The notes beneath the pieces were generated by a model. The model did no database searches, was not told the origin of the DNA, and saw nothing but the letters and a program-made list of their open reading frames with translations. The position numbers and the translations under genes were made by a program. A stretch of DNA of 64,000 bases from Bispira polyomma (taxonomy: Eukaryota). Position 1 is the stretch's first letter. The number at the start of each line of letters is the position of its first letter. Shown here piece after piece: positions 1 through 60,669 of this stretch. The DNA lies in contig OZ287748.1 in the NCBI GenBank assembly GCA_965649765.1, forward strand, positions 34,906,001-34,970,000, in the 5' to 3' direction.

Positions 1-727
1 GGTGAACCGAGAGGGGTAGAACTACATGCACGCGACTCGACCCTGTCGAGACGTCTGGTAATATCTGAATTAGCCGTTTCTAACCTCTGAAGCACAGCCA
101 TCACATCCCCGAGATTGGCTTGATTACTGCCGGCCGGATTAGGTTGGGGGGGCCGTTGTATCTGTTAGTAGACCCTCTAAATTCATGGCTAACAGATCCG
201 AAGCATGAGCAGAAGTACCTGTCTTTGTTGTCACCTTCTTACTAGGAGCACGTTTTTTATCCTTAAGTGGCACACTCAAAGGGGTTTTCCTTGTCCTCCC
301 CATAGTTCCAACAATATAAACTTTTGTAATTGTAATTAGACTTTTATTGCGCTTAATCTCCCCTTAACAAAGGGGACTCTAAGGCGTACCAGCACAAAAG
401 ACAGTTATCCAATTGCCAAAATCAAGGGACAGAAAAAAGGGTAAAACAGGTTATAAAATATGTAAAAGCACTTAAAAGTAAAAATAAGAGTTTATTTCCA
501 AGTATTTCCAAATTTAAAATTTCTTGATGTTTACTGTTGAATCACTTAATTCAATATGGTGGAAAGGGGGATAAATAAGTCAAAGCAGAGAGGGCCCCTA
601 ATTGGGTGCCACAAAGGGATAGAGAGAAGAGAGGAGAGGATACCTAAACTAATTAAGGTAGTGTTAAATAAGAAGGGGGGTTTTAGGAACTGAACTATCA
701 GACCCCTGTTGGGTCATGATGTGCAAA
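1..727 (-). mobile_element. 5' part of a YR (DIRS/Ngaro-like) retrotransposon, same family as the 6884-12192 element; continues off the left edge of the window
   Basis: Colinear similarity to about 11589-12192. Gag start ATG at 303 (MGRTRKTPLSVPLKDKKRAP vs MGRTKKTPLSVPLKDKKRAP). Shared terminal motif ggaactgaactatcagacccc..gggtc.tgatgtgcaaa at 686-727. Confidence 0.9.
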
Positions 728-4351: not shown

Positions 4352-7082
4352 TTGGAGTTCCTGTCTCACTGTTAAAGAATGGCCATCACATTGCTTTTTA
4401 TCTCAGAGGGCGGAGCCGCTAGTAGTTTGTTTGGTCATTTCGAGAGCTGTAAGAAACAGTTTAAATCAGGATTTAAAGCAAAATTATGGGAAAATGAATT
4501 ATTTCAGATTTTTTTAGTTGTAATTTATACATTGACAGATAGACAGATAATGTTGGTTTACTCTTAGGTAGACAGCTTCAGAAATAGATATATGTCTCCG
4601 AGATTTCTGGCTGTAAGGTAATGTCCTTTGTTGCTGTATTAGTCATCCTGTTAACACAATTTAAATACCAAAATCTAGATTTTGTTAAATGAGTTGTAGG
4701 GGCGTATCAATTGTATAAATTGTAACAAGACGAAAAATGTTTGTATCACTATTTGTAACAAGCATTAAAAAACGAATGCAGTATTATCGTCATAAAAGGA
4801 TTTGCTTTGCAATTTTTTTTCTGATCTCTGAAGAGATCTGGTCAAATCCGACTGTTTCGTTCATGTCACAAGTTATTGTCATAAGTGAGGGGTTTACTGT
4901 ATATATCTATATATGATTTTTGAACACTGATCATTTTTCTTATGGCAACCATATAACACCATAAAAAACATTCTTTTTGGCCACCTTTTACATGTATATT
5001 GTGTCAAATCATAGTCTTCCTTTTCATTATAACCAAGTGTTTATATGTTTTTGGATTTGTTTCGGAGACTGCCAACAGAATCTGTGTGGTAACCTCAGAA
5101 TGACATGTGTTTACAAAAACACCAGACTGATTATTGGGCAGATTAAAAGACTAGTTTAAGTAAGCAGATATCCATCAATTCTCCAGTGTGGTGCTGCAGT
5201 AGATAAGGCCCACTGACAGTTGAGGTCTACCGTGTGTTTGAATGAGAATAAAGTTTCAAAAATTGTTTTTCAATACGTCTTCAAAACATTGCTTCATTAT
5301 CTGTGTCATGATATTTTCAGTATCACAATATTCATGATAAAATATTAAATTAAATGCTTTTCAGAGATATTTACTATATGCAATTATAGGCGGGCCTTAA
5401 CTGTACAGGATCTTTATTTCATGTAGCACCCTTAGAGGAAGAGGCGCAAAACATGCATTACAACGGCCTGCTAGTCTCTAGAGTTGTTGACACTAAACAC
5501 AGGCTGTCAAGGTCAGCCCCTACAGTAAACTTTTGGGCACAGAGGTATCTATATCTAAGGTTTTATTAGAAAAGACTGGTTCCTTGTAGCATGGGGGTGC
5601 TTTGTTTTATTAACACAGAGGCCCAAAAAGAGCACTTTGACGTGGATTAGATTACTTTACTATTCCTTTTATAGTTTTATTGGGTGAATGTCACATGGAA
5701 TAATGCTAGAGACCAGAAGGACTTGAAAGAAAACTTCTGAAACTTACTTATTGCACTAATTATCATTCACTAATAAAAATTTGGAAGAAAATCGAAAAAC
5801 AGTTTTGAAGCATTATTGGAGCAATTGCAAGAAAACTTATGTGTCAATTTGCCTTATTGTTTCTTTGTTGTTTGCCTTATAACTACAAAAAGGGTTTGGG
5901 TTGAAAATCCTGAGTGTGTTAGCATGTAACCGATCCTGGGGACTTAGATTAACCTTCTCAGTATTCTAAAATAGATGATAATCCAGTGGACTGACAAATG
6001 CTTGTATGTGTGTAAACATATAAAATTGGTTAAGTGTAATATTATTACATTTGGCCTAGCGAAAACCTTTAAAATAAACAAATGGAGGTTAAATGGCCTT
6101 TTAATTGAGCAAAACAAACGATCTTATTAGTCCGACAACACAAATATATGTAACAGAAACATCCATACTATAGAACTTCGTGGGTTGTGTTACATATACA
6201 TAGTCGTATCCCAGTTTATGGTGCATATGTACCATTCTTGAAAGTTAAACTTTAGAGATAATAGATTCATGAGATATTTTAGTGTCACATGCAAGCTTAA
6301 CACAAAAACTGAGTTAAATGCAATGGTACAGCTGCACGGGGCTAAATGAACCCACATAATTTTCCTCTAGAGATATGCTATTTCTATTTAAAAGAAGCAG
6401 CAAACCATACATCACAGCAATATGTTGTTGTCGAGGGTATTTTGCTTTGTCTGAGTCAGGCTTAGGGGGTCAACAAGGGGGGGTACTCAGGAAATATATA
6501 TCCCATAGTTATATGACGTATAAGCTTCCTTCTGTCCTATAAATAAGATCCTGGAATTGTTGCTTATAATCAAGGCCCAAATATATAAGTGACTATTCTG
6601 TTTATGACCAGTATCACCACATATAGATTCCAATGTGATGGTGGGCTTATGCAATACGGGTAAAATACACCAGGAAAGCCAATTAATATCAAGGTTTATG
6701 TTGCTTATAATTTTAGTTGCCTTTTTGTTAAAGCTTACCTCGATAGAAATGAAGTCAAATAGCCACCACCAGTAACTAACGTTACCAATGTTATCACATT
6801 TTCATTAAAAAGCATCTCAAATCAGAATATTTTGATAACCATATGCCATAGCCACAGTGAGATCAAAACAAACAATCTGGTATCAGTTCCCAATGGAGTG
6901 TGAAGTGACCTTAAGGTAAGTAAAAGGTCAAGTATGATTACTAAGGTAGGTGAGAAGTTAAGTATGAATACCATTCATGTTTGGAGAAATTTATTCTGTA
7001 CAAGTTAGTTCTATATACAGGTAGGTAAAAAGTAGTTTAAAATTTAACTTGGGTAAAATTTTAAAATAAACCCAAACCCAAA

Positions 7083-8033
7083 CTAAAGGGAAGAGGGATT
7101 GATGGACGCAAAAGTGCTTGGGAGGAAGAGTGCTGGAGGTAGGCCCAGATGGCTGGGCTGCGCCAAAGCCCATGGGACATTATGTGTTGCAAGGACACAT
7201 TGTTATTAAACGACAAAGATGCCCCCGACCTACGAAATGTATGAAACCCGTGGTAACTGTGGTCTACCCCTAGATGCTGTAACACACTCTTGAGTGCTGA
7301 TCTAATGTGTGAATCCACTATTATTGAGTGAGGAGGGGAAGAGGATGCAAAAAGGGGGGCAGAGGGTGAAATGTCCCTAGATTGAAGGGGTTTGGTGAGA
7401 GCAGAAATGGGGCACAGTAATTTATTTTGTAGCACAGGCAGTTGGACTACATGAGTGTCAGTCCTATTCTGCATGTTTTTAGCCCACTTGAGGATAAGAT
7501 GTGCTCCCAGTGGGCCAAAGATTACATCTTGTCTCAGGAAGTGTCTGGTAGGATCAAACCTACTCCTGGAATGGGGGGCAATATTTGACATCCTAAAGGA
7601 ACCAAAGAAAGCGACTAAAAAGATGGCCTATATAAGACAGGGTCATTTAAAATGGAACATGTTCTAGAGATGTTTTGAAGCATTAGGATGTCATAAATGC
7701 CTTTCTTTTGGGGCTTAAAGCTAGAGGAGAGTGCCAAGCTCCTCAGAAACATGGACACAGAGTTGTGACTTAAAACCTGTGTGTTAAGATTGTAGTTAGA
7801 GAACATGAACTTAAGAGCAGTGACATAGTTGTTCATTACTCCAGGAGAGATATTGTTCTGAGTGAGGTACTCCAGAAATGCCAGAATAGAATGTACTGAG
7901 ACCTGTTGTAGGCCTGAATAATGAAGACATGCTAAGAAAGTCTTGAATTATGAGTTATAGGAACTGGTTGTAGAAGCAGAATCTAGTCGCTGTACTGCTG
8001 CCAGAACCAGAGGTAATGTTGATGGGGCTGCAC
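7083..8033 (-). pseudogene. Tyrosine recombinase (YR) of the retroelement; one nonsense codon and frameshifts near 7615 and 7120
   Basis: Catalytic motifs FRMSNIAP (R), HTFRRSGA (HxxR) and HGLWRSPAIWAY (W..Y). ORF-track pieces 7615-7836 and 7061-7591. The frame extends up to a splice-acceptor-like site at 8034/8033. The homologous copy at 27599-28549 defines the true C-terminus (STFAS...PSSL*). Confidence 0.92.
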
Positions 8034-8039
8034 CTGTAA

Positions 8040-10427
8040 TCATATAATATAATTTAAGTTAAAAAAATCCACAGGTATTTGCCTCCAGTGATAAGTGCCT
8101 AGCTCTTCAATTATGGGTCCCTTAGGAGGATTAGCAGAATGGATGCGAGATAATGCATCCGCCTTAATGTTTTTCTTACCCCTAATGTGTTTAATATTTA
8201 AAGTTATGTCAAAAGTAGAAGTTAAAAGCCATATATTTCTAATGCAAGTTGCAAGGAAAGAATCCTTAGTTTTACTAGTGTCAACAACTAACACCACAGC
8301 CAGATTATCACACCATACCGTGACTCTCTGGTGAGCCCAGTCTTTACCCCATAACTTTAAGGCTATGATAATATTCAACATTTCTAATTGTGTAATGGCC
8401 AATATTCTGTTATAAATGTTATATATAGGAGTGGCATAAATTTCTTTGTTCCAAATACCGCCGAAACCCGTCAGGCAAGCATCTAAATGGAATTCTTGCA
8501 TATGTTCAATATCCTTGGGTGTAATATATGTGATGCCGTTATATGCAGGAAGAAAAGATAAGAACCAATCAATATCTTGTCTCATGTTGTGTGTAACCTT
8601 AAATCTTTTGGCATGGGGGTTATTTCTGAAAACAGCTAAAAGTCTATTGATAAAAATTTTAGCAGGGCGAACACACTTATGCACATAAAGGAGTTTCCCT
8701 AGCAAAGATTGAAATTTTGTTCCAGACAACCAATATTTCTGAATAACAACTTGAAGTTCCTGATAGATTGAATTAATCTTGTCTTGGTTAATACTAGTTG
8801 TGCCCTTCTTTATGTCTATGTCTATTCCTAAAAAGGTAGTAAAAGTGCTGGGAACGACTGATTTTTCTTGGTTAATGGAGAGACCAAGCTTCAGAAGAAT
8901 GTCATGAAGAAGGTCATAACTTATGCTAGCCCTATCTTTGGTGCAAATGCAGGCATAATCATCAATGTAACAGAACAAAGTGAAGCCCTGAGCCCTCATA
9001 TAGTCGGCCACAATGTCCGAACATCTCTGAAACGCCGCGCTGCCGTGCGCCCAGCCGAACACAACGGCAGCGTCGACATAAGAGCAATTGTCCCAATTTA
9101 TGCCAAATTTGATGGCATCAACGGGATCAACCCGTAGATTCCTGAATGCCCTAGAAACGTCCGTTTTAAACATGACTGGGTCATTGGTGTTTCTAATTGT
9201 TTCAGTAATGTTGTCTAATGTAGGAAATCTGAGAGCAAACTTAGTTCCGTCAAAAGTGTCCCTGGGGACCTGACTATTTACTGAGAGGTCATAAGGAAAA
9301 GACAAATTAAGAATGATTCTACGCTTGTCCGTGTCTTTTGGTCTGGTTAGCAGGGGTGAATCGTGATAATGTTTGTCCATTACCCGTGTAACTGGGCCCA
9401 GAATGGCACCCTTAGACTTTTCCTTTTCTAGATATTTTAGCTCCTCCTGAGGGTATTGCATAGCAGAGTGGTGATTGCTTAAGTTATTGTTATGTAATAG
9501 TTGAGGATTTTCAAGAGACAGAGGGAATCCGAACTTAAGGTACTGGAGCAAGATTTTGTCATGATGTCCTGTAAGTATATCTTCCCACGCCTTAATGTTG
9601 AGGCCATAATTTAAGGGAATTCTAGCAGCCCTATAATTAGGAACACCTGTGTCTCTAATAATTTGAGCTATTCCTAGCATTTGATCTACAGTGGTAATAG
9701 CAAGAGGTTTCCTATCTGGGCCAATAAATTCGAAATCCTTATTTGAGAGCTTAATGAAGCCAATGGCCTTTGAGTTGTGGTGAATATCAGTGACCTTATG
9801 TTTAGTTGAAGAACCGTGTCTTTTGTTGTGTTCAATCAAGGTAGCAATATATTCGCTGTCGTGGTCGACCGACCAGCCAGCTTGTTTGGAAGAAGAACGG
9901 ACGGACGTGATACTAGCATTGTCTGTTTCACCATCAATGTCCAACATGGGTGCATTATTATTATCCCCAGTGGACTCATCTTTGTCAATAATTTCATCAA
10001 TTAGATTTTCAATATACTGTGTATAATCACAGCCATAATTATTTTGACATTCCAGGTCTCTGTTATAGTAGTAGGGAACATTGCTGGCCTGTTGCCTTTG
10101 CTCTAGAGTATACTGATTCTGAACCCAAAGAGTAGGGTCAATATAAACTATAAGTTCTACAGTTGATTTGATTTCCAAGTAAGCCTCAGGGATGTGCCTA
10201 CAGGGACTAAAATGGTAATAACCATTCATATCAGAATTTATATAACAGAAACCGGAAGCCACAGGCAAGTCATGCACATTTAAATACACAACGTTACTTG
10301 GATTGTAAATGCCTTCACTCGGCCAGTTACATGTATGTACAGTAGTCGAGTAACTAAAGCCATCATGGCCCATATCATTGTCATCATATCTACAGTCTCT
10401 AAATTCTGTGTTATTTACATCAGTCAT
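8040..10427 (-). CDS. Reverse transcriptase-RNase H (pol) of YR retrotransposon, 795 aa from first ATG; frame extends upstream to the gag stop at 10749
   Basis: RT motifs KRRIILNLS, FKTDVSRAFRNL, FGWAHGSAAFQR, YIDD and FLGIDID. RNase H motifs HLDACLTGFGG, ITQLEMLNIIIAL, WCDN and HIRGKKNIKADALSR. Confidence 0.95.
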   Translation of the reverse strand: MTDVNNTEFRDCRYDDNDMGHDGFSYSTTVHTCNWPSEGIYNPSNVVYLNVHDLPVASGFCYINSDMNGYYHFSPCRHIPEAYLEIKSTVELIVYIDPTLWVQNQYTLEQRQQASNVPYYYNRDLECQNNYGCDYTQYIENLIDEIIDKDESTGDNNNAPMLDIDGETDNASITSVRSSSKQAGWSVDHDSEYIATLIEHNKRHGSSTKHKVTDIHHNSKAIGFIKLSNKDFEFIGPDRKPLAITTVDQMLGIAQIIRDTGVPNYRAARIPLNYGLNIKAWEDILTGHHDKILLQYLKFGFPLSLENPQLLHNNNLSNHHSAMQYPQEELKYLEKEKSKGAILGPVTRVMDKHYHDSPLLTRPKDTDKRRIILNLSFPYDLSVNSQVPRDTFDGTKFALRFPTLDNITETIRNTNDPVMFKTDVSRAFRNLRVDPVDAIKFGINWDNCSYVDAAVVFGWAHGSAAFQRCSDIVADYMRAQGFTLFCYIDDYACICTKDRASISYDLLHDILLKLGLSINQEKSVVPSTFTTFLGIDIDIKKGTTSINQDKINSIYQELQVVIQKYWLSGTKFQSLLGKLLYVHKCVRPAKIFINRLLAVFRNNPHAKRFKVTHNMRQDIDWFLSFLPAYNGITYITPKDIEHMQEFHLDACLTGFGGIWNKEIYATPIYNIYNRILAITQLEMLNIIIALKLWGKDWAHQRVTVWCDNLAVVLVVDTSKTKDSFLATCIRNIWLLTSTFDITLNIKHIRGKKNIKADALSRIHSANPPKGPIIEELGTYHWRQIPVDFFNLNYII

Positions 10428-10748
10428 TACTGCAGAATTAGTAGCTTTTGAAGAACAATTTACCGTGCAATTACTACTACAACTCTACCAAAAATTGTCA
10501 TTATGTTCTCCATAATTATAGTCAATAATGCCCTCATTCAATGCAGGCTGTAAAACACTGTCTGTTTGACATTTCCCTAAAATATTACCACTATCAAGCC
10601 AACCTTTATCACTATTATCCAACAAAGTTATGTCAGTCTCTTGCTGATTAAGTTTTACACTACTACAAACACAAGACATATCATTTACCCTGCTACTAAA
10701 ACACCTACACTTTCTAATTGTTCTTTCAGTTAGTTGTTGACTGTACCC

Positions 10749-11890
10749 CTAAGCTTTATTTCCTTGATTTTGGTTGCTTTTGTTGTTATTCTTCTCACAT
10801 TTAGCCGCCGGGTGGGAAACATCTGTGTTGAGAACTCTGTAGCAGTAAGAACAAATATGTCTGTACTGCCCGTGGTCCCCTTCTTGATTGCATTTACTGA
10901 GGTTATAAAATTTGCATAATAGCTTGCCTTTCTGAATAGCCGTTCCTATGCTTGGCTGCTGACTGTTCAAAACTGTCAGCTGAGAAACACTCATACGGGT
11001 CAACGCCCACTGAGTAGCATCCCTCCAGTGGAGGCGCCCCTCCTCCACCTCTTGCATATTGGCAGCCCATGCTGCCCTGACTGCTGGCCATGGGAGAGAG
11101 GAAGCGTCCTTCAACGAATTTATCACCTGGTCAAGCCTTTGCCTCAATAAAGTTGGGTCTTGTACTTGAGATACATTAACAGTTGGCCGGCCGCCCATTG
11201 AGGAAGTGTGAGGTCGTTAAATGCGGGTCTCTTTTTGCTAGATACCCCAGTACAACCCTCATTCAGCCACCTGAGTTGTGGATCCGCATTGGCGATGTCG
11301 GTAGTATTATAGCGTCCTGACTTTTGACGCAGTAGTGGCTTACCTTGGGTAAGTTCTGTGCACAGCTGGGCGTCGTATGAAGCGAGACGATGATTCACGG
11401 CTGCAGTCACCTCTGGGAGTGATCTCAGCACATCAACTTTTGGAATAATGCCGTCTCTCTGGTAGTCGTTGTGTGATACCTTTGGCTGTTGATAAATCGG
11501 GCCCCGAACGTGATCCCTGGGAGGTAGCAGGAGAGCGAACTCGTCCGTCTGTCGCTGTTCCAAAATCGTCCCGTTTCTGGAGGCTGAAGGTGAGCCTACA
11601 GGGGTAGAACTGCATGAACACGACTCGACCCTGTCGAGACGTCTGTTGATGTCTGAGTTAGCCATTTCCAACCTCTGAAGCACGGCCATAACGTCCCCGA
11701 GATTAGCTTGGCTATTACCGGTCAGATTGTATTGTGAAGCTGTTGTATCGGTCAACAAGCCCTCTAAATTCATTGCTATGGGATCCCTAACACGAGAAGA
11801 AGTACCTGCCTTTGTTGTTAGTTTCTTGGTAGGCGCCCGTTTCTTATCCTTGAGTGGCACACTTAAAGGAGTTTTCTTTGTCCTCCCCAT
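10749..11890 (-). pseudogene. gag-like ORF1 with C-terminal Cys/His zinc-finger; split by a 1-nt deletion near 11180
   Basis: ORF-track pieces 11144-11908 and 10749-11198. C-terminus CKFYNLSKCNQEGDHGQYRHICSYC..HPAAKC. The homolog at about 58870-58980 reads QWVAGKVSNALQVAD..LKDAASFPWP in one frame, showing that the shift is a mutation. Confidence 0.85.
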
Positions 11891-12556
11891 ATTCACAATA
11901 CTATGCACTTGTTATAAAATATAAAACACTTCCAGATAAAAACTAAAACGTATTTCCAAGTATTTCTAAATTTAAAATTTTCTTGATGTTCACTGTTGAA
12001 TGACTTAATTCAATATGGTGGAGTCACCCGGGGAGAAATAAGTAAAAGCAAGGGGGGGGGCCCTAATTGGTTGCCACAAAAGGATAGAGAGAAGAAAGGA
12101 GAGGATACCTAAGTGAGTTAAGGTAGAGTTAAATAAGGAAGGGGGTTTTGGGAACTGAACTATCAGACCCCTATTGGGTCGTGATGTGCAAATGTATGCC
12201 TACTGACATTTATAGACCACAAGTGTCTAAAAACATTTACTGCAAGAAAAATGTTTCTTTCAAATCAATTACTTAGATTTTTATAAATGCCGCAAAATAA
12301 TATTTAGAAAACTGTGAAAAATAATATAATGTTACATCCTACTAATTAAATTATATTAATCATTTAGGTGGCCGCAATAAATTAACTATACATATAAACT
12401 CTAAATCCTAAATTTATATTAGGAAAGGGCATTTTAACCTTTAATCAGCAATATTTAAACTGTAAAAGGGACCCTCTCAATGATATCTACTATTTTTCCA
12501 AGTGTCGTTGAATCCATTGATACCACGCATATTATACATTTAGTCAAAAAATGGTT

Positions 12557-20694: not shown

Positions 20695-21080
20695 ACCAGA
20701 CAAACGGCAGCATCAGTGGTGCCTCATACCTTTGCCTCAGCCATTCCTTTAGTTGGGCTTGGGGCTTAAAATTTCTGAATTTTAACCATTTTACACTTGT
20801 TTCTCTGTACATACACCATTAACATGTATATAAATACAAGCTCTAACGGAACCGTTTTACTGACTTACTCAAACATCACACTTGATCTAATACCTTGATT
20901 ACTTATCATTTAAACTGGAACTTATACCTTATAACTTAAGTGGACTGTGCACAGCAGGCCCCTTTAGGGGACTGATAGTTCAGTCCACTCACAAACCCCT
21001 TATTCCACTTCACAACCTTAATTTCGGTTATACCAACAATATATGTAAGAATTTACTGGGCTACTAGCCAATCACAGCCC
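20695..21080 (+). mobile_element. 3' fragment of another YR retrotransposon (YR C-terminal tail, 3' UTR, end/start junction hairpin)
   Basis: AASVVPHTFASAIP + tttagttgggcttggggc matches the YR tails at about 7070-7110, 27585-27640 and 58680-58740. 20939-20989 resembles the terminal motif at 12150-12192. Confidence 0.75.
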
Positions 21081-22588
21081 ACACTGTCACAAGGTATTTG
21101 ACGTCTAAGAGTATCCTTGGAGGGTTCAATTGTGTTAATGCTGTGTAAAGGATTACTTTATGTACACATACAGAAAGGCGAAGGTAGACTCTGGGGCTCT
21201 ATGATTACTACTGAGAGTTTAAGGAGATCTATCTACACAGAACGGATTGATTCACTGCAATTGGCCAGAGAAAGGTTTTTACCACCAGTATCATCATTTT
21301 TGGATTTTTGTCGCTGTCTAATTTAACATGTTAGAATTTCCCATGTTCCCATTCATGTAGGAATTTTAATCTTTAGCAGTGTTGTATAATTAATTTTATA
21401 TAATTGATGAATTATTTAGAAGCAAACATTCTATTTACATATAAATTATTTCTACCATTATTCTTGGGGTAAGTACATTTTGACTGGTTTAAGAACCATT
21501 TAATAGCAAGCTAATTCTGGGCTTTTTCCTAATTTAAAATCTGGGCTGCTATTTGCACAGATTCTAATTATTAATGTTTGTCTCAAAGCAAATTAAATGG
21601 CTAAAAAGATATGTCAAACAATTTAATTTTCTGAGACTTAGAAATTTCAAAGATTACCAATTTTAGTTTACTTGTGGATAAAGCTCCTGGTCTTTAAAAT
21701 AGAGCTTGAACGTTTAAATGTGTCAGTAAAAGTGATTTATCCAAAGGCTACACAACCAAGTTAAGATATACTCTTTAGACCACCACCAAGTCAAGGTCTC
21801 TGGAAAATTGTCTCAATACACACAGAATGTCAAGGAACTTTGTCTGGAACAATTGCCCAATTAGGGAGTGGCAAAGTGACAGTTTAACACTGATAAAGAT
21901 AGCAAAATGGTCCCTGTCACTGGGAGATGCAATTAATCAAAAGCGACAAGCAGATTTTATAAAAAAAAGATTATTTTTCAAACAAAGGGTTAGATTGGTC
22001 TCTTAAAAATTGTCCGTCAGGGAGATAATAGATGCTAAAAAATTTATCAATAAAGTAAATGTCAGGACGCATTTGATTTAATGGATGCATGCGAGACATT
22101 ATTACTAAGACAGTATTCCAGTATGATAAGCGTATATTATAGTTTTGCTTACAAGTGTTACTCCTGCTCTCAATTCTGCTCTCAATTCTCTTAGGCCAAT
22201 TTCCACATTAATCTGTCTTAACTAGGTTTAAATTGTTTGTTGGGATGTTTCTTTTGATCTTTTGCTTCTCCTTCCTTTTTTTAATGTGGCAGCTGTTTTA
22301 AGCTGTGATGTTTCCATTTTCAGTTTTCTTTTGTTTTACTTAAGTAGCAGCATAATGAAAACATCAAACCAAAATGTATAAATATAATAGATAAACAAAG
22401 CTGATGGTCTGGCACAAAATATAGTAATTTTACTAGTTTTATTACGAAGCCCATCTGTGGTCAAGTTGATATGACTTATACAATGATTACTTCAGTGATA
22501 AAAGATAACATTCTTTCGGTGTGAGTGCAGTGCTTGCTGTATGTGTCTAATCTCTAGTACAGTGGGGTAGGATAGTTATGATGATTAA

Positions 22589-23466
22589 GGCTTTAGTGAC
22601 GTAAACACAAAAAACGATCGCCGATAACCACGTTATGTGTGCTTGGGCTTCTCAGAAACTGCACAACTTTTTCTTTGTGGCCTCAAACTCGATTTATGGA
22701 TAACATAATTACATTTTCATGAGTGGAAATGATAAAGAATGACATATATTTAAATTATATACTAATTCATATATTTAACATATCATTTTAATGGGTATCT
22801 TAAGACATACAATACATGTAGTAGTGTGTAAAATTTTAACTAAAATGGGTAATATTTTTAAAGTACATGGTTCACAATCGTGACACAATTCATTTACCAA
22901 AAAGGGATCAATACTGAAGTATTGTATATGACTAGAAAAAGAAAAACAACAGCAATATTTTAAATGAATTAGTTTTTTAATAAAAGCAAAAAAATGGGAA
23001 TAATTTTAGAAAAAAATTTAAGTTACACTCTCCCAAATAGAAAGATACTTTGTATACTTTGTTTATATAACACAAGGAGACATATTTAAAAATGTAATTC
23101 ATTCAAAACAATATACACGTTTTTTAAAGTTGTGTAGCCTATATAATATCTTCATATATGCTGGATCAATACTTGTATTGTGTCACAATAGAAGGGGTTG
23201 TCTGCGAGAATTGTTTACAAATATGACGTTCGACCATAGAGTTTAAATTGTGTGACGTCACAATACAATAATTGTTATATGTGTGTTTTAACCACTTTTC
23301 AACAAAATAGTGAACTTTTAAATGGTATTAGTATGTAAAACTGCTTAAAACTGTCACTAAAGACCTATTTTAAGGCTGCCATAGTGGGTACTTATGGTTA
23401 AAATATTTTCGTAAGTGCAGTATATATATACAGGCTGCGCATTTGTGTGTTTACGTTACTAAAGCC
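22589..23466. mobile_element. Non-autonomous TTAA-specific DNA transposon (Kolobok-like)
   Basis: 21-bp TIR ggctttagt(g/a)acgtaaacaca. TTAA TSD at 22585-22588 and 23467-23470. The empty site gatgattaacattat is in the paralog at about 37796-37810. Purine (GG) terminus fits Kolobok rather than piggyBac. Confidence 0.85.
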
Positions 23467-24834
23467 TTAACATTATAAAAACATTAGTGTCATATTTTAC
23501 AACAATATAAAGATATATTGTGTGTGTTTTTATGGCAGAGCATATACACCATTGCCATTGGGCTCACAGGTATTACCTGTCCGGAAAAGCTTCTTAGGTG
23601 ATAGATTATTAAAGACAACAATTGATGGAACTTTGCACATATTGTTTTGCCTTTTAAGCCTTAAAAATATTTTTTAATGTCCTACGTAAAAGTCATATGA
23701 TAACATAGCAATCTCTTTTTGGTATATTAGACAAAACTATTTTGCGCTAGAACATGATATTCACATTAAAAAGCATATTATGGCGATTTTTAAGAAGATT
23801 TTTTTACTTCTGTGTGTCAGTTGCCTTTAATTACCCTTTCAAACCACAATCCAAACCATAAATTAATTATGAAAAGAGACACTTGATCGATAGACAAAAA
23901 GATGAAACAGGTTAATTGTACTCGGATGGAACAGGTTGCAGTGACTTAAAATGAGGATTGTACTGCTGTGATTTTATTTACTTGTCATTTTAATATACAA
24001 ATTTAGCATCACTAATAAAAGAACAGATTAAGAAACATCATTAAATAAATCATTTTGCAACATCTAGTGAAGCTAGCTATGTATGTCTAACTTGTTTTAA
24101 AACCATTAAAACTTTTGCTGAAGATCAGAGAGTATGGTGTATCAAATTAAGTCAGATCTGGAATCTAGGAAGTTATCTTAAGCTTCTGATTGTCACATAC
24201 CAAAAACACAATACACCCATTAGGTGCTTTTATACTCCACTCTTTTTTTTGTCAGTTTTGCCCGATTTTATCCTTGAAATACCCCAGACCTGTAAAGACC
24301 TATTTTAACATCTGATTAGCAGACAAAATACTGAATGACAGCTGATTCAAATCACTTAAACTTTAGAGTACTACACTTCCATAACTAGCTTTGTTAACAT
24401 TTGCATTCTGTTAAACATTGATTCATTGCAATGAATTTTGGGGCACTAAAAACTCTGAGCTTTTGATACAACTACAGCGATAATATGACTTTCATACTTT
24501 AAAAATAAGCTTTGGTACTAAATGAGAACATTCCCTCATAACAACTTATGAAACACATCATTAACTTGCAAAGCTTCCTGGATGAGCTTCCTGTCACTTC
24601 TAAGGAATAAACACATTAAGCCATTCTTATGTGCCAGTGGCATGTCCTTATTTTGTCACTTAAATAACAGGGTCTATAATATTCCACATGTCTGAGACAA
24701 TTATCTTTATAAAGTGACTGATTATGTAGGATATACACATTAATATCTTGTATTCAATCTTTTTTTTTTTTACTTTTAATGTATTGTTTTCATATTACTG
24801 TAAAATACCACAAGAGGACCTAACTCATGGTTTT

Positions 24835-24953
24835 AAAAAAACACTTTGCAATTTCCACGGACTTAATGATTGCACTAATGATTCTGCTGTTGCGCTTTAG
24901 AAGATGCCTAGCATCAATAAAGCGCGTTAAAAATCCATAATAATAATAATAAT
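24835..24953 (+). mobile_element. 5'-truncated 3' tail of an L2-type LINE
   Basis: Reverse-complement homology to 42523-42630. Ends in (taa)n. Absent from the paralog at about 39030. Confidence 0.7.
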
Positions 24954-25034
24954 TGCGCTAAATTGGTGACAATTTCTCTTTTAAAGGCTTTTATTCACAA
25001 TAAAATATCATGAATCTAACAAACCATTAAGGTC

Positions 25035-25270
25035 GGCGCCTTGGTGGTGTGGATAACACTTTCAACTTCTACCTTTGTGTTTGTGGGTTTAAATCACGAC
25101 CCTGGTATGTGTTTGGGAAAAGATTCTAGTGGACTTACTAAAGGCAGTTGCTTAATGGTTTACAGTTCAAAAAACATGACCAAGTATCCCATTCTGAGAC
25201 ACTCCACAAATATGCCTATGAAGACACAATTACAGCTGATGAAGCGATGCCAAATCAAGATCAAATGAAC
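25035..25270 (+). mobile_element. Decayed SINE-like insertion shared by paralogous blocks (also about 39050-39230 and 43260-43450)
   Basis: Degenerate A box (tggtggtgtgg) and B box (gggtttaaatc). Same position in three paralogs. Confidence 0.5.
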
Positions 25271-27419
25271 ATAAAGCTTTTACAAAAAAGGCTTTGGTGA
25301 ATATGACATTACCTATTTATCTCTTAGTTATATTAGAAAACTAGTACCTAGTTTAGACTCAAAAGTGCTCTGCATTCTAAAATGTCTGTGTTACCTTAAT
25401 AGCCATGATAACAGATTCTGAATCAGTGCTTTCATGTTACAAATCATGGACCTGTAGTAAATCCAAAATTCATTACTGAAACAGCATGTGTTTGCTCAGT
25501 GACTGAACAGATAACCTAATAATTCTCATAGGTCACAAAGTTATTAAATGTAACTACTGGCAAACAATGCTATATTTGTGTAACAATGAAATAATTACCA
25601 CTAAATGTCTTAAAATGACATTAAATGTTTATTGATGAAGGAAACATTGGTGGATATTGTTGACGTCCCAGTGCCAATTAATGTTAGCCCAGTAGTACGA
25701 TTTTAACCTATATTAACTATTAACCTTATAGAAACTGCTTAGTATTAGCATAAGACCATGTGACCTGATTAAGGCAGACCACTTCCAAAAGTCCCACTAA
25801 ATAGACTATAAAAGTATCTCTTGAGTGTAGATATTGTGACCGTTAGACACTGCTGCAAATTAATTGATACAATTAAATGTTAAGGTTTACCAGGTTTGCT
25901 AAGGCTTGCAGCTGACTGTAAACTAATTGGTCTCCTTTGTACACCTACATATTTTATCTCAGATAAAGATGTCCAGTGAGTCAGTCTACAAGTCTTAACA
26001 CACCCACAGGGGTCAGGCTGACATGGAAAATAAACATTTTTGTAAACCCCATAGAAACAAAAAGTTTCAGACCAGCCACCAAGAACCAATTTGTCGTCAA
26101 TGAATGGCATTAATTGTTCCCACTTCTGTGAGACCTTATTTACACAACGGTATACTGTACAGGCCAAATGAAGGTCTGAATTGCTAGATTTATTACTTCT
26201 GAAATCTATGTAAGTATTTTGTGTGGGTAGATTTAGTCAGAAGATGTTTTTAGAGTACAATATAGGGATGATTAAAAAAAAACAGTATATGGATTATATT
26301 CAGTCCATAGTCTATACAATGATGCATTCACTATGCACAGCATATATATTTGTTTTGTTTTATTTTCTCTTTTTGTTGTTTACATTTTTGTTAAGATTTT
26401 AGTTAAGTATGAGTTTAACAGTTTAGATTGGAGAGTAACTGATTATTTTTGCATACTCCCTACAATAGATTTTTAAGGTTTCCATGAAATCCTAAGTGTT
26501 TTTTGAACCAAACAGTTTTTAATAGAATTTGATTCAAATAAGAAATGTTTTTGTAAAATGCAGAGGATGAAACATTTTGTTTAGTACAATTCCATGGCAA
26601 AAGATAGTCTTCTACACAACCCTGTTTTGCCCGTAAAACGTTTCTTTGCAGAAAATGGATGGAAATACAAAACTGCTGACACATCAGTCAGTCCTCATTT
26701 TTCCTGGTATGCTGCTGAACTTTTTGTACTGTTGATGTAATAATTTTCCTCTGAAAGACTGTTTTAGTTTTATACTTTATTTTTTTCTGGTTGAATCATG
26801 AAGATGGTGTAAAACATACACCATGTTTTAATAGAACATGATCGAAGTTTTAATAAAGTTGCTTCAGTATATCTTGTTAACGATTGCCTAAAGGAGAGCG
26901 GATGTTTATGTTAAGTATACTAACTTTTATTTAAACACAAAGCAGTATCACCAAGGTTACTATGTCGAAATACCACATTGACTACCTTGAGATGCACAGT
27001 CGTTATGGTTATTCATAAAAGTGTCATAAAAGTGTCATAACATAAAAACCACAAATTCACAAAATTAGATCACACATTCTTTCAACACAATGAAAAACAC
27101 TGACATGAGCAAAAGATGCCATTTTGAATAAAATGACACTCAGGACTTCGAGTACAACTGCTTGCATTGATATAATGATGAACATTAGCTAATAACGATT
27201 AGGGTGGAACTGGGTTAGAAGCTTCAATCAAGTTTTATGGACAAAAGGCACCCCTTAAGTCCAAAAAAAAATGCCATGCAGCTCAGCCGTTTTGCTAGTT
27301 TACCATCTCACAGTTTGCCCAATTTCCAAGAATTTGTTTCTTTTGAAGTCAGTTAAATAATCTTATACCTATTTTGCTGCTACTGCTATGTCAGTTGCTT
27401 GGGAACTGAATGTATGTGC

Positions 27420-29648
27420 CAGTTCCCTATGTTAGTGGGAGGAAGAAAAATGCTAAATCCTTATGTGAGGTAAATGAACAAGAATGAATAAAGTTCTATT
27501 TGCGTTTTATTTTCTATACATGTTAGTTGGTATGTACAGGTTATAAGGATATTTAAAATATTATAAAATGATATTTTAAAATTGAGCCCAAACCCCAACT
27601 ACAAGGAGGAAGGGACAATGGTGGCAAAAGTGGAAGGAACTATAGCAGCAGTTTGGATGTGGATTGCAAATATGTCCACACTGCGGAACTACGCCAAAGG
27701 TCGTGTAACATAATGTTTTGGAGTGATACATTGTTATTAAAAGCTGCTGTGGCGCCCAATCTGCGAAAGGTATGGAAACCATGGAATGAAGGATCAATTC
27801 CAAGGTGCTGGAGAATTTGTCTGAGTGCAGATCGGACATGAGAATCCACATTGGGTGATGTGGTAGTGTAGCAGAAGTGAATAGAGGGGCAAAGGGGGAA
27901 GAATGTCTAGCCTTCATAAGTGTGCGTAGAGCCTTGACGGGACACATGTGAATAATATGTGATGTACTTCTGTCTTGGAGGTTTTTGGCCCATTTGATGA
28001 TGATATGAGCACCTGGGGAACCAAAAATCACATCTTGTTGTAACAAGTGCCAGGTTGGATCAAATTTGGACCTAGAGTGAGGTGCAATATTGGACATTCT
28101 TAGGAAGCCATAGAATGCGACCAAGAAGATAGATCTATATTAAACAGGATCTGGTAATATTTCACATGCTTGTGATATGAGAGAAATGTGTTTGATGGTA
28201 AAAACCCCTTTTGGTGAAGGTCAAAACTGCGAATTATGTGTGAGGCTTCTAATAAACAGTGAAATAGCATTGTGATGTAATATGTCAGGGAGTATGTTGT
28301 ATTTCTGAGTCATGAACTTTAGGGCTGCCAAAAAATTCTTTACTACTTTTGATGACAAATTGTTCTGTACTAGATATTCCATAAATGCCAGAATGGAATG
28401 AATGGATATTTCTTGAATCTTGACATATTGCAGAAACACAAGAAATGTTCTAAACTGTGAAGTATAGGCTGAGATTGTTGAAGGCCTGAGTGCCGACTGT
28501 AGTCTCTGAATGGCAGCGTTCCCCAGAGAAGAAGATGCTACTGTAGAACCTGAAATTTTTTGAGAATCTAAATTATAATATTGAATGGGAACGTGTCTAC
28601 GTGTGTATTTGTAGAGTGATTGTAATACGTCCTGACTAGGTGGATGGTCAGAATATATACGTCATAAAGCATCAGCCTGTACGTTAGCCTTACCCCTTAT
28701 GTGTTGTATATTTATAGTTATGTCATGTGTGGCACTAATTAGCCAGATGTTTCTAATGCAGGCAGCTAAGAAAGGATCTTTGGTCTTTCTGGTTTGCACG
28801 ACCAGTACAACTGCCATATTATCACAGTTAATGGTAACTTGGTGTTGCTCCCAGTCCTTACCCCAGACCCTTAAGGCTATGACTATGTTAAGCATTTCTA
28901 ACTGAGTGATAGCTAATTTCTGGTTGTAGATGTCCAAGACTGGAGTAAATAAACTTCTTGTTCCCATATAGCACCCATGCCTGTGAGGCATGCATCCAAA
29001 TGAAATTCATCATTTGCCCTTATATTCTGTGGGTTATAGTATGTAATACCATTGTAAGTGGGTAAGAACTGTATAAACCAGTCGAGGTCTCTCTTTATGT
29101 TATCTGTAACCTTAAAACGTTTTGCATTGGGAGCAGCCCTAAATACTGACAGTAGTCTATTCATGAAACACCTTGCAGGCTTCACACATTTGTGAACATA
29201 AAGGAGCTTACCTAAGACTGACTGGAGTCATGTACGTGAGAGCCAGCTTTTAGTACGTGCTTCAATGCATTCTGCATATATCTGTTCTATTTTTTCTTTA
29301 GTAATACTTATTGTATTTGTCTCAATGCTAATGTCTATGCCTAGATATGTAACCTCTGTTGCAAGTGGAGAAATTTTACTTGGATTCATAGGAAGACCTA
29401 AGTCATTCAAAAGGGCACACAATTTTTGGAAACCTTCATCTGCTTTGTCTCTAGGACAAGCGCATAGGTAGTCATCTATATAACAATGTAGAGTGTAGCC
29501 TAATGTTTTCATGTGGTCAGCTATGATGTCAGAGCAGCGCTGGAAAGCCGCACTTCCGTGAGCCCAGCCAAACGCTACCGCACCGTCCAAGTAATATTTG
29601 TCTTTCCACTTAATGCCAAATTTTAGTGCGTCCACAGGGTCGACGCGT
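27420..29648 (-). mobile_element. 5'-truncated, decayed YR retrotransposon (second family): RT C-half/RNase H at 28552-29648 and YR at 27599-28549
   Basis: YIDD, HLDACLTG, ITQLEMLNIVIAL, HIRGKANVQADAL; YR motifs FLRMSNIAP, HTFRRLGA and LWRSSAVWTY. Multiple frameshifts. Abuts an L2 fragment at about 29650. Confidence 0.93.
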
Positions 29649-29649
29649 A

Positions 29650-30560
29650 TTGATTAGAGCTTCCAGCTTTTAATACTATTGACCATGGTTTGCTATTTGA
29701 CACCCTAAAACAGTACTTTGGACTAAATGACAGCTTCCTTGATTGGATTACATCCTATCTCAAATTCAAAGTGGATGATCACTTCTAATCCTCTTTCAAC
29801 CTACAATACGGAGTGCCTCAGGGATAGATCCTAGGACCTCTACTTTTAACCCTCTACACACATCCCCCCAGTATAGATCAATAATCACAATGTTAAACAC
29901 CATATTAGCATTCAAATCTATGTTGTTCTCAATCCCCAAATTGCCAACAAAAATCTTGGTATACTTGCTGACTGTCTTTCCAGGCTTAAATGAATTACTC
30001 CAAACTGATATTAAATCCTGACAAAACTGAATACATTCTCAGTGGTAGCAAAAATCCCAGAGCATTATTCCCCATTACAATACTGGGCAATGATATACAT
30101 CATTCTGTTGATATTGATACGCACATTATCAACAATTGTCACTTCTGTTTCTTAAACGTTCATTATATCAAAAGAATAACTTGTTCTGGATACTGCCTAT
30201 ACTGTGGCTAACTCTCTGGTGAGAAGTCATCTCGACTACTGCAATTTCCTTCTGTTTGGGGTAAAAAAGTCTCATTTATGCTAGTTACAGTCTATTCAAA
30301 ACTATTTATATAGAGCCATTGGTTAATTGCGTATTCGTACTGATGTCTCTCCATACCTCAGACGCTACAATGGCCTCCTATTTACTATCAGATTTTGTTT
30401 GAATTCTATGTAACCACTTTCAAAGCTCCCAACAGCCCTCCTACCTCACTACTCATCTTCCCTTCAGAAACTTTAAGAGGGGCAAGTGATTTTTTGTTTT
30501 CTAAGAAAACCCGGTTATTTGGCTTCCATATGTTATGGAACAGTCTTCCAGTTTAAATCA
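29650..30560 (+). mobile_element. Decayed L2/CR1-group LINE RT fragment
   Basis: FNTIDH..L..L..YFG, YGVPQG.ILGPLL, LILNPDKTEYIL and SHLDYCNFLLFG motifs with many indels. Confidence 0.85.
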
Positions 30561-41800: not shown

Positions 41801-42522
41801 CATGTTAAGATTTTAGGTTTAGTTGAGGTCACATTATTTTTATGAATATACATACATCATTACATGTAAAATAAACCACTGTAAACATTTAGTGAATAAA
41901 CTAAATATAGTATACCTTAATCTAGTGTTTTTTGGATACATTTCCCTTCAGGTTTTGGCACTTGCTGCCAAGCAACAGTATATCATGTTACATACAGCAA
42001 ATGAGAAACCTTACACTTTGTAAAAAATACGAAAATCAATGACACCATTTCCTGTTTAGTAACCATTTTTCATTTTCATGAAATAAAACGAATTTACAGT
42101 AGCTAACAACAATTGCTGTTTTACTGCCCCATTTTGAGAATTCACACGCAATCAACATAGTATATTGCCTTACAAGCTGACTGAGGTGTCCCTACCTTAT
42201 GTTCTAGTTGCACATATCCCATTATTTGTCTCATTGTCACCTTGACCCTCTGGGCTTTTGTGGTGTTTGTGGATGTTTTTGGCACCACACAAATATAGCA
42301 AACAGTTCACTCATGTATGAAACACATTTTTACATTTCTAACATATGAGCATTATTATGAGACAATTTAAATCTAAATTAATTAACCTTATGTCAAGGAA
42401 TGTCCACATTTTAAGGAATTATTTTCTCAAAATCCTTTTAATTTTGTAATTATTATCATTATTGTTAAAGTGGCTTCACACACTATTGGATACCTATTAA
42501 ATTGGAAACATATCAAATTTGC

Positions 42523-43265
42523 TTATTATTATTATTATGAATTTTTAACGCGCTTTATTGATGCTAGTCATCTTCTAAAGCACAACAGCAGAATCATTGG
42601 TCCAATCATTAAGTCAATGGACATTGCAAAGTCGTAAGGCAGGAAGTGGGAGCGTGCACGAGAGAAGCTAAGGTGGGTAGGCAAGGTTAAAAAGATAGGT
42701 TTTAAGCTTTTTCCTAAAACCAATAAGTGTGTCAACTGATCTGAAGTCGACTGGGAGACTGTTCCATATCTGTGGAGCTGCAGTGGAGAACGCTCTGGAT
42801 ACCGCCTTCCTGATTGGTCTGACTGAAGAGACAGAGAGTCTGTTGCATCTCTTGTGATTACTGAAGGAGAGAAGGGAGGCAAGGTAGGGGGCTTGTTCAG
42901 TGACTACAGGCCTAAAAGTAGTAACGGGAATCTTGAAGAAAATGCGAGAATGAATGGGCAGCCAGTGGAATTTTTTGAGGTAAGGAGTGATGTCTGTGCG
43001 ACAACCTCAACTGTGAGCCTCACATTGACGGATCTGTCATCTTTATATTGTTGTCTCATGTTTTTGAATTTTGGAAACTGAATATTTCTTCTCTCATGGA
43101 TCTGTGCTGGCAGTTGCTCAGTAATAATTTTTAAATTTCTTGCATGGTTAAAAACAATATCCTTTCCATGTTGTAGGACAAGTTTCAATACAATCAGTCT
43201 TGGTTTTCGCCCTTGCTTGCCAATACGATGGGCAATGTCAACTTGGACTGGGGATGCAGGGTTTA
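42523..43265 (-). mobile_element. Internally deleted L2-type LINE (ORF1 fragment joined to ORF2 C-terminus and 3' UTR)
   Basis: ORF1-like HRIGKQGRKPRLIVLKL..GKDIVFNHARNLK..ITEQLPAQIHERR. ORF2 end RAFSTAAPQIWNSLP..R....GFRKKLKTYLF. (taa)n tail. Confidence 0.85.
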
Positions 43266-43269
43266 AATA

Positions 43270-58273: not shown

Positions 58274-60022
58274 TACTTGTTGCTTCAACTTAAGAATGCA
58301 ATATGGATGTTAAAACATACATTGACTTCAAAAAAGGGGAAGGTTCTGGCCCTCTGATTAGCTGGTGAGAGGAATAGACAGATGGTGGTGAGAGCATAGG
58401 TGCTCTGATATTAAAATCTTAGGGTAGAGCCAAACTAATGGTGTTGTGGACTGAAGAAGCAGGCCCCTAAATTAGCCTTGCTTACCACAGTCCTCATGTT
58501 GAGACTGAGAAAGGTCAAGTTAAGATTCAAAGCCAATTATGATAATGTTTTTATAGGTATTTTGTGTAAAGACAGGTAATAAAAGATTTTATTTGAGCAT
58601 TTTTTACATGGTAGTTCCTATGTACATGTGACATCTATTTTAAAATAGTAAAAGCTAAAAATTACACCAAATTTTAAAGCCCCAAGCCAAACTAAAGGGA
58701 AGAGAGAATGGAAGAAGCAAAGGTAAGTGGCACCAATGAGGCAGCGTGTGAGGTGTTTTGAAGATATGCCTAGACTGCTAAGGATCTCCAAAGGCCTCTA
58801 TTGGGTGCTCTCCTGCCAAGACAGCCTACCTCTTCAATCTCTTGCATGTTAAGGGCCCGACAGGCCACGGAAAGGATGCTGCGTCCTTCAAAGCATATAA
58901 CAGTTGATGTAACATGTCCCGAAGTACAGCGATGTCGGCGACTTGCAGTGCGTTCGATACCTTCCCTGCTACCCACTGTGGTAACATGAGATCATCATAT
59001 GTGGGGCCTTTCCATGCCGAGCCGCCTGCCCACCCCTAATTGGGCCACCTGAAACAAGCATCAACCGTGGTAAGGTCGATTTAATTTGTGAAGTCAGCTT
59101 ACCTTGTAGCAACTGTCTCTGGGCTAGTAACTCGTACTCTGCTAGTTGTTGCAAGACAGCCAACTGGACAGTAGACAATGCCCTCAGCACATCTCCGTTG
59201 GGGGCAATTCCGTCTTGTGAGTAGCCTGACTGCGTCTGCATTGTGGGCACATTTGTAGCCTCTAACCCGTAGTGACTTGGCAGATGTGTGAGAACCGTCT
59301 CTTGCCTTATGAGTGGTAACTGTGATAGAACACTAGTTGGAGGTACCCCAAGTGGTACGGCAGGGGTAGTCCTAGCTTCTACTCCTTTGATCCATTCGGA
59401 TAACGAGATGTTTGATGGTTCCAGATGTCTTAGGATAGCAAGCATCTCACTCATCTGCCCCACCCAAGTTGGTTACTGGTTATGAGAACCATGACTCATG
59501 GACACAAAGGGGGCTGGATTGTTGACATTCGCCGCCAGTATACTAGTGACAGGGGTCGAGTTGTGTAAAACCGAGGTCGCCACTTGGCTTTCCAGTTTAG
59601 TGAATAACGCACCTAATACCTGTTGCGTACTTGCAGCTTTCATCGTCATGGGTTTTTTTGTCTTGTGTGTAGGAGTTTTCTGAACTTTTCACATTTCCCA
59701 GTTGATCACTTTTTATGTTGAAACGTATATATTATGATGAATCAATGTAAAATAAAACTAACACGTTTTATAACACATGTACAATTGTTCATAAAAAAAA
59801 CGAAAATAAAAATACTTGTTGCTTCAATTTCAGAATGTAATATGGATGTCTGAACATACTGGAACTTTAAAAGGGGGAAAGTTCTGGCCCTCTGATTGGC
59901 TGATGACAGGGACGGACAGATGGTGGTGAGAGCATGGGTGCTCTGATATTAAAATATTAACTTAGAGACAAACTAATGGTGTTGTCGACTGAAGTAGCTG
60001 GCCCCTAAGGTGCCTTGCTTAC
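58274..60022 (-). mobile_element. Internally deleted YR retrotransposon (third family) with about 210-bp direct repeats at 59813-60022 and 58274-58485
   Basis: Gag homology (DGIAPNGDVLRAL, QGK, PQWVAG, LKDAASFPWP, NMQEIEE) fused at about 58800 to the YR tail (GLWRSLAV*AYLQNTS..TFASSI). RT is absent. Confidence 0.88.
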
Positions 60023-60669
60023 GAAACTTCACATTTGTACATACACAGTCAGTACATGGCATATTGGCGTCATTCATGCTGTTACAAGTCTAAGACTCGA
60101 AGTGCAACCACTTGCATTGATATAATCATTAACATTAGCTACATAGCCTAAAATAACTAAAAACAATGACTTGTAATGTCAAGTGGCACTGTACATAATT
60201 CAATAGAATATTAATAACAATAAGGGTGGAATGTCTGTGAAGCTTTAATCAAATTTTATGGACAAAAGCTCACTTTAAGGCAAATAAAAATGTCATTCGG
60301 CTTGGCTGATATGTTTTTCAAGAATTGTTTATTGTGAACTTATTTAAATAATCTTTAACCCACTAATTTTTAATATTTTACTTAAGTCTGTTGCCTGATA
60401 ACTGTAAATGTGTGCAACAACAATTCCACACACATCCAACATTAACAGTAGCAACTAATATAATTGAATAAACTGCAGTTTTTTTAATAGAAATCATTAT
60501 ATACAGTTATGTTATACCATAAACGAACATCTTAAACATGAGATGTCAATTTTTCAACCCAATATCTTTGCAACAGACATTTTTACATTTCTAACATGTG
60601 AGCATTATTATATATGACACAATTCAAATCTAAATTATTACACAGAGCACAACTAACACATATCACATT

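Follow-up and report, generated by a model that had tools for sequence, protein, structure and literature searches.

A conserved hairpin, predicted from sequence and borne out by covariation, lies at the integration seam of Ngaro-type retrotransposons. We regard it as an even call that this hairpin, which spans the junction between the end of repeat B and the start of repeat A, is a folded DNA site that the tyrosine recombinase (YR) cuts on one strand for insertion. A folded recombination site of Ngaro, cut at its stem edge, appears to be so far undescribed: in the available portions of the papers covered by our literature search, including PMC3266345, PMC13465315, PMC4157794 and PMC6681497, no hairpin is described at a Ngaro junction, and founding papers or reviews may mention one. 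The hairpin was noticed in a stretch of 64,000 nucleotides, called the window here (positions 34906001-34970000 of OZ287748.1; 35% GC), from the 1.04 Gb genome assembly of Bispira polyomma (GCA_965649765.1).

Decayed Ngaro elements and their internal junctions

The elements in the window are decayed Ngaro-type YR retrotransposons with the layout A1-gag-RT/RH-YR-B1-A2-spacer-B2. Ngaro elements are defined, in the sections available of PMC8547959, PMC9210276 and PMC3783388, by split direct repeats in the order A1-ORFs-B1-A2-B2, and the element that we call E1 is an ordinary Ngaro of a known family. Remnants related to E1 lie at 1-725, 20706-21084, 27420-29653 and 57872-60024. The features are as follows, in window coordinates.

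12190-6884, minus strand: E1, whole element, with gag-like frames, an RT-RNase H frame and the C-terminal part of the YR
12148..12190, minus strand: E1 5' terminus, comprising a 7-nt centre TGCACAT, an inner stem with one bulged base, a loop and the right outer arm CAGTTCCC
11969..12190, minus strand: A1 repeat of E1, ~222 nt, recurring as A2 after B1 in genome copies L008 and L012
10749..11911, minus strand: gag-like region of two overlapping open frames (11144-11911 and 10749-11216), a probable gag from its position and a Cys/His motif
8040..10484, minus strand: RT-RNase H frame (RVT_1, E=6e-11; RVT_3 at aa 698-780 of 814)
7061..7627, minus strand: C-terminal part of the YR, a broken copy; relatives have an open frame of ~330 aa
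6884..7061, minus strand: B repeat of E1, terminating in GGGAACTG (left outer arm); the end of E1, which has the A1-ORFs-B form
450..725, minus strand: 5' end (A1) of another E1-group element, which runs out of the window; 84% identity to 11911-12192
20939..20989, plus strand: complete B1-A2 junction hairpin of a truncated element, seam between 20947 and 20948; 69 bits under a covariance model trained with this copy included
58448..58493, minus strand: complete B1-A2 junction hairpin of an internally deleted element, seam between 58488 and 58487
59813..60024, minus strand: A1 repeat of the element with the 58488 junction; 85% identity to 58274-58485
58958-59472: gag remnant of the element with the 58488 junction
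27420..29653, minus strand: RT/YR remnant and B end of another element, terminating in GGGAACTG at 27420

Gag (placed by position only), RT/RNase H and YR share one orientation, and no Pfam family reaches the cut-off in the gag-like frames. A methyltransferase domain is absent from E1; there is no Pfam match, and the RT frame stops 34 aa past RNase H, which leaves no room for one. Of the PAT-like pattern, the elements have the split direct repeats and lack the methyltransferase. A DIRS1-type ITR/ICR arrangement was ruled out because the repeats are direct and the ends do not overlap.

At 20939-20989 and 58448-58493 an element end adjoins an element start, and an earlier note on the window had taken these places for the junctions of circles. 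Both joins are present, both fold, and the element boundaries fall exactly inside them. They are nonetheless internal B1-A2 junctions, not circles, because split direct repeats define the same junction in 50 loci, and the reading as circles or tandem dimers is ruled out. These loci derive from 80 YR-anchored elements taken, blind to their junctions, from the 150 listed matches of a YR search. Both repeats were present in 51 of them, one was dropped for a discordant B1 end and A2 start, and the B1 end and A2 start are adjacent in the 50 analysed. In the window, the element with the 58488 junction carries an A1 of its own (60024-59813), and for the 20947 junction the match is to the full element L206, in its YR-end/B1/A2 part.

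Close copies of E1 include complete ones, as A1-ORFs-B1-A2-spacer-B2 (L008, L012), and solo A-spacer-B ones (L007, L011), with an A2-B2 spacer of ~283 nt in the E1 family and longer spacers elsewhere. E1 itself lacks A2 and B2. The B end is followed by unrelated flank in 20 of the 80 loci (a count made by eye; L160 has a partial second B). Copies of this A1-ORFs-B form whose ends are exact occur often, in 20 of 80 clade-1 loci and in most of 40 clade-2 loci; they may stem from a short one-junction circle that integrated, and not from B1 x B2 recombination at a later time.

Several other arrangements were observed. Junction-bearing units form tandem arrays behind one element at C2:3427893-3437871 (period 1656 nt), C1:63320925-63323786 and C1:19800694-19801927. 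Two loci hold a second copy of ~1 kb of their upstream flank, placed inside A2 or after it (L214:695-1683 and 6815-7802; L153:781-1905 and 7021-8147), which suggests one-ended or repair-completed insertions. The A2 of one clade-2 element has taken in a telomere-like (TAACCC)n run as well as a fragment of a LINE-type RT (L094:2060-2100). Within the window, the remnant 3' end at 27420 (minus strand) lies inside a host repeat, of which an empty copy at 41071-41100 has the look of a left arm and an inverted arm CAGTTCCC with 16 nt between them; a small junction-like hairpin arose through the insertion at 27420, possibly by chance. A large unclassified repeat is present as several decayed copies without long open frames at ~21080-27420, 36100-42500, 43250-47500 and 53700-57500.

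A covarying hairpin at the B1-A2 seam

The 5'-terminal stem-loop that the earlier note described in E1 is borne out: the minus strand from 12190 to 12148 reads TGCAC-ATCA-C-GACCC-AATAG-GGGTC-TGAT-AGT-TCAGTTCCCAA, with the inner stem where it was claimed, except that AGT intervenes between TGAT and TCAGTTCCCAA, which had been given as directly adjacent. The feature had been drawn at 12148..12192; it extends to 12190, the start of E1, and 12191-12192 are host flank. Complementarity of the 3' end to the 5' motif holds for TTGGGAACTG at 6893-6884, and the final A of the claimed match (6883) is again host flank. With E1 bounded by 12190 and 6884, its two ends match over 10 nt; the position corresponding to 6883 is a T.T mismatch in true junctions. 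The left outer arm is missing at the E1 5' terminus because E1 starts at the cut.

The complete B1-A2 junction is predicted to fold as a two-stem hairpin. Pairing at at least five of six outer and at least three of four inner positions was found in 46 of the 50 repeat-defined junctions, compared with 3 of 1540 nearby control positions. Across the genome, the pattern GRACTGTG-N26-40-TTCAGTYC gives 389 matches versus 11 for the reversed control; this pattern fixes the outer arms only, and genome counts rest on patterns, while the covariance model was scored on the window. RNAalifold, unaided, found 6-bp outer and 4-bp inner stems. A search of five loci against Rfam gave 0 matches at the gathering score.

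We grouped 112 distinct junction regions into 54 clusters and kept 43 as clade-1 families; the 11 dropped were seven pattern matches lacking a YR or the inner fold, two duplicates and two members of a distant clade. Part of this family set comes from the pattern search, in which the ACTG/CAGT core is fixed and the inner stem is free. The proposal that sequences differ while pairing is kept is supported, in that compensatory changes occur across families and pairs covary across the 43. Among 40 aligned junctions, 86.5% of cells pair and two-sided changes occur in 11 of 16 pairs. The covariation score is 0.288, compared to 0.115 +/- 0.011 for shuffled and 0.05-0.09 for slid alignments, with the caveat that the shuffles ignore relatedness; the count of further pair types in these 40 junctions is not significant (34/500).

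A tree-aware test used a YR tree of 33 families and a null that keeps the tree and the substitution counts, and its three best column pairs were all predicted pairs. The pair -5/R+4 was matched in 0 of 200 nulls, yet it represents about one change on the tree. The pair -8/R+7 (E 0.005) shows four double changes, all four Watson-Crick, and +7/R-6 (E 0.07) shows five double changes, all Watson-Crick, along with five single changes. The last of these pairs falls within the "spacers" under any duplex reading. The base at -5 follows its partner R+4 in 42 of 43 families, and not the equivalent inner-arm base. Compensatory changes are found at +6, +7, +8, +9, +12, -5, -6 and -8, spacer positions included. 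Four of the six core outer pairs are invariant and so carry no information on pairing, and -7/R+6 is unpaired in 23 of 43 families.

The character of the helix is also informative. G.U/G.T pairs make up only 8 of ~553 paired cells, versus 85 two-sided changes, and such scarcity is more in keeping with a DNA helix bound by protein than with a typical RNA helix. Allowing one bulged base at +10, which can be C, G, A or T, improves the fit in 36 of 43 clade-1 families, this being the best of two registers scored with no separate control. The sense strand is the more stable in 33 of 43 families, a weak asymmetry (mean -10.7 vs -10.0 kcal/mol). Folded as RNA, the junction has a median z of -3.7, and the antisense strand a median z of -2.5.

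Two distant clades retain the cut and the fold with different letters. In clade 2 (40 loci; YR ~40% identical), the cut between ACTG and T, written ACTG-T below, is kept, the outer arms are GAACTG/CAGTTC or GCACTG/CAGTGC, and the inner arms are, for example, GGCAG or GGTAG with their partners; a script found an A/B pair in 5 of the 40, and the majority of copies stop after B. Clade 3 comprises 20 pattern matches, 18 of the GCACTG type and 13 with an upstream YR that is 36-40% identical. Its pair +8/R-8 is T-A in 18 of 18, and +9/R-9 is A-T in 16 and G-C in 2. All three clades share a cut at the outer stem's 3' edge and an inner arm starting at +8, 7 nt past the cut. On its right strand the centre measures 6 nt in clade 1 but 7 nt in clades 2 and 3; only clade 1 has the +10 bulge. 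Metagenome and viral scans returned 5 loci and 1 locus, respectively, none bearing element ends.

Insertion ends, targets and the recombinase

Element ends in other copies turned out to be tied to the motif. The seam reads ACTG-TG in 44 of the 50 repeat-defined junctions, and the remaining six carry point changes or deletions. A1 identity begins at the seam in 28 of the 44, 1-3 nt before it in 10, because of a chance TG in the flank, and elsewhere in 6 (mutations or indels); B2 identity stops at 0, +1 or +2 in 38 and earlier in 6. Elements therefore end in ACTG and start with T, without target duplication, and the cut is the 3' edge of the outer stem. Comparison with empty sites showed five insertions into satellites or other repeats to be exact, with nothing gained or lost (L151, L168, L178, L201, L215), the empty sites of L181 and L189 being too diverged for reading. 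In L168, a clade-1 element sits precisely within the RT gene of a clade-2 element.

The two ends differ in what they keep of the centre. At 111 distinct right ends (115 minus 4 degenerate junctions), the number of centre bases kept is 0 (68 ends), 1 (31), 2 (10), 3 (1) or 5 (1), and none of the 111 keeps at least 6 of the next 7 nt, so that there is one product class. We would expect a two-strand exchange over a 7-nt stagger without homology to leave about half of the right ends with 7. Of the first 7 nt, 6 or more agree in 88 of 98 left-end rows; among the others, nine are indel register shifts and one is degenerate.

Target left flanks resemble the outer arm, with T at -2 in 75 of 96 (p 9e-20), A at -4 in 53 and G at -7 in 33, and clade-2 targets have A/T at -2 in 29 of 30. 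Right flanks show weak A-richness only, at +5, +7 and +8. Microhomology 3' of the cut was not found (T at +1 in 43 of 111, p=0.11), and 39 reconstructed target sites fold no better than shuffles (median z 0.02).

The recombinase conserves R149, H266-x-x-R269 and Y300, which we take to be its catalytic YR residues. A structure model built from 135 sequences reaches a pLDDT of 89 and supersedes an earlier one whose catalytic domain had a pLDDT of 64. As modelled, the fold is Cre-like: the closest structures are Cre and Tre (Z 19.9, rmsd 4.0, 269 aligned), followed by the integron integrase (Z 17.1; IntI aligned over 246 of 313 residues). The spacing from Arg149 to His266 is 117 aa; it is 116 in Cre and 131 in IntI1. 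At this level of comparison there is no indication of an I2 insertion of the IntI type. A sequence search of solved structures with the YR returned only XerH, at E=0.47, and a deeper profile gave no match. The ~12 residues directly after the catalytic Arg resemble an insert that is presumably family-specific, by comparison with other YRs, and one might speculate that it contacts the unpaired centre. The YR frame has no start codon and begins past a pyrimidine-rich stretch ending in AG (20 of 20 alignment rows).

Models for the junction and comparison with known systems

We propose that the outer stem (GG[A/G/C]ACTG and its complement) and the inner stem would act as two head-to-head recombinase arms around a largely unpaired centre of 6-7 nt, an arrangement that resembles the attC R box, central spacer and L box. 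In clade 1 the fold offers two such arms because the arm motif, GGGGWCTG, recurs on the right strand of the inner stem. A single monomer would cut at ACTG-T on the sense strand, and standard YR geometry, in its arm-to-spacer polarity, assigns this cut to the sense strand. The cut strand would then be transferred to duplex DNA of the chromosome, at a site with a loose likeness to the outer arm (G-7, A-4, T-2). Replication or repair, without a second exchange, would resolve the resulting branched molecule, and on this proposal that is why one product class is seen; the missing homology and the missing second product class fit a single exchange. The cut geometry, the bias of the targets and the one-strand product lend the proposed folded substrate indirect backing. 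Either single-stranded sense cDNA or a cruciform on a circular intermediate could provide the fold.

Several observations count against a folded sense site. The duplex holds two inverted-repeat cores with 7- and 6-bp spacers, which makes a duplex site possible. In addition, DIRS-1's extrachromosomal cDNA is described as antisense and the published model has a double-stranded circle (PMC7192593, in the part available), the antisense polarity arguing against a sense-strand cut. Also on this side are the weak strand asymmetry, the bulge on the cut arm, the Cre-like YR model, the missing microhomology past the cut and the reservations on individual pairs given above.

The main rival, which we think somewhat unlikely, is that the YR uses the double-stranded circle junction, consisting of arm 1, a 7-bp spacer and a degenerate inverted arm at +8 with the other arms accessory, and that the hairpin serves template switching, circle closure or RNA packaging during reverse transcription. 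The inverted arms around 7 bp and 6 bp, the Cre-like YR and the position of the junction within the transcribed 3' repeats, where it folds well as RNA, all speak for it, as do the double-stranded circle of the DIRS model and the 3' hairpin proposed as the DIRS-1 RT primer (same paper, available part). However, the better duplex core, GGGGWCTG-6-CAGTYC, is not the one used, and the neighbouring arm is variable where arm 1 has an invariant C. The single product class and the few G.U pairs also speak against this rival, which moreover requires a coincidence: in three clades the cut would happen to fall on the edge of the stem and 7 nt away from the inner arm. A duplex reading does not account for the covariation of spacer positions unless reverse transcription gives the hairpin an additional role.

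A further alternative is that the folded substrate is the antisense first-strand cDNA, with the same bond cut by a non-standard monomer arrangement. Sequence alone does not tell which strand is cut, the antisense strand folds nearly as well, and the conserved target T at -2 could act as microhomology; antisense single-stranded cDNA is also the intermediate reported for DIRS-1 in the available text of PMC7192593. We nevertheless consider this reading quite improbable. The G.T pairs of the sense fold (+2/R-2 in 31 of 43 families; +6/R-6 in 13 of 18 of clade 3) would become A.C mismatches. The cut would also fall where the strand passes from the centre into the outer stem, opposite to the arm-to-spacer polarity of characterised YRs. 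Least probable, and very much so, is that the symmetry merely reflects inverted protein-binding sites in unfolded duplex DNA: the four core outer pairs that never vary would allow this, but the compensatory changes, which include spacer positions, and a bulge of free identity argue against it.

Taken together, we favor, at a level just short of even, a model in which Ngaro inserts via the folded junction by a single strand exchange, as a eukaryotic counterpart of integron and CTX-phage recombination. An element-encoded, Cre-like YR would recognize the hairpin in reverse-transcribed DNA and, with neither homology nor target duplication, join it to chromosomal sites of almost any kind. The YR specificity of DIRS-order elements had not been experimentally investigated as of 2020 (PMC7192593, available part), and in 2016 IntI and XerC/D were the only YRs named as recombining single-stranded substrates (PMC5027507, available part). 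Our analysis supplies the exact bond, ACTG-T, a candidate substrate of 45-60 nt, a target bias and natural compensatory variants, and this makes the integration question testable with one protein and oligonucleotides. If the fold is the substrate, it would be a third, eukaryotic instance of single-strand site-specific recombination, and genome engineers would have an interest in a recombinase able to insert DNA with neither double-strand breaks nor homology to the target.

Compared with Ngaro elements as portrayed in the available published accounts, those studied here agree in gag, RT/RNase H, YR, the lack of a methyltransferase, the A1-ORFs-B1-A2-B2 order, solo AB copies and the absence of target duplication. 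They differ in having an A2-B2 spacer, no SGNH hydrolase that we could see and many A1-ORFs-B copies with exact ends, and those accounts, as far as available, give no hairpin at the B-A junction. DIRS1-like elements likewise have the end-to-start junction copied internally, and this copy is the template for the circle junction; unlike the direct, non-overlapping repeats here, they have inverted terminal repeats, a methyltransferase and a 3-nt motif common to both ends (PMC3266345, available part).

In the attC hairpin, an R box and an L box with extrahelical bases are separated by a spacer that is unpaired, with 5-6 bases on each arm, and the tip is variable; the hairpin is cut in the R box and resolved by replication (PMC5027507, PMC4792948 and PMC2727003, from the sections available). 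The Ngaro junction shares with it an outer stem, a centre that is unpaired, an inner stem carrying an extrahelical base, and a variable loop (here predicted and covarying), the crossover at the outer stem, a structure that is kept while sequence varies, and an apparent one-strand product. In contrast, it has no AAC/GTT triplet, and its cores are nnACTG-T and CAGTnn rather than RYYYAAC/GTTRRRY. The bulge lies on the cut arm, in clade 1 only, whereas the extrahelical bases of attC lie on the opposite arm (PMC2727003, available part). The partner here is a loosely specified chromosomal site and not attI, and the microhomology after the cut in attC x attI is absent from the Ngaro junction. The YR is Cre-like, unlike IntI, and the setting is a eukaryotic retrotransposon, not a cassette array.

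In the CTXphi attP/XerCD system, as given in the available part of PMC4792948, a folded strand provides both arms, as proposed for the Ngaro junction, and undergoes one exchange with a duplex, through a recombinase that has no I2-type domain. That system employs the host XerCD, a single site, dif, and a stem without an extrahelical base, whereas the Ngaro junction would be served by an element-encoded YR acting at many sites.
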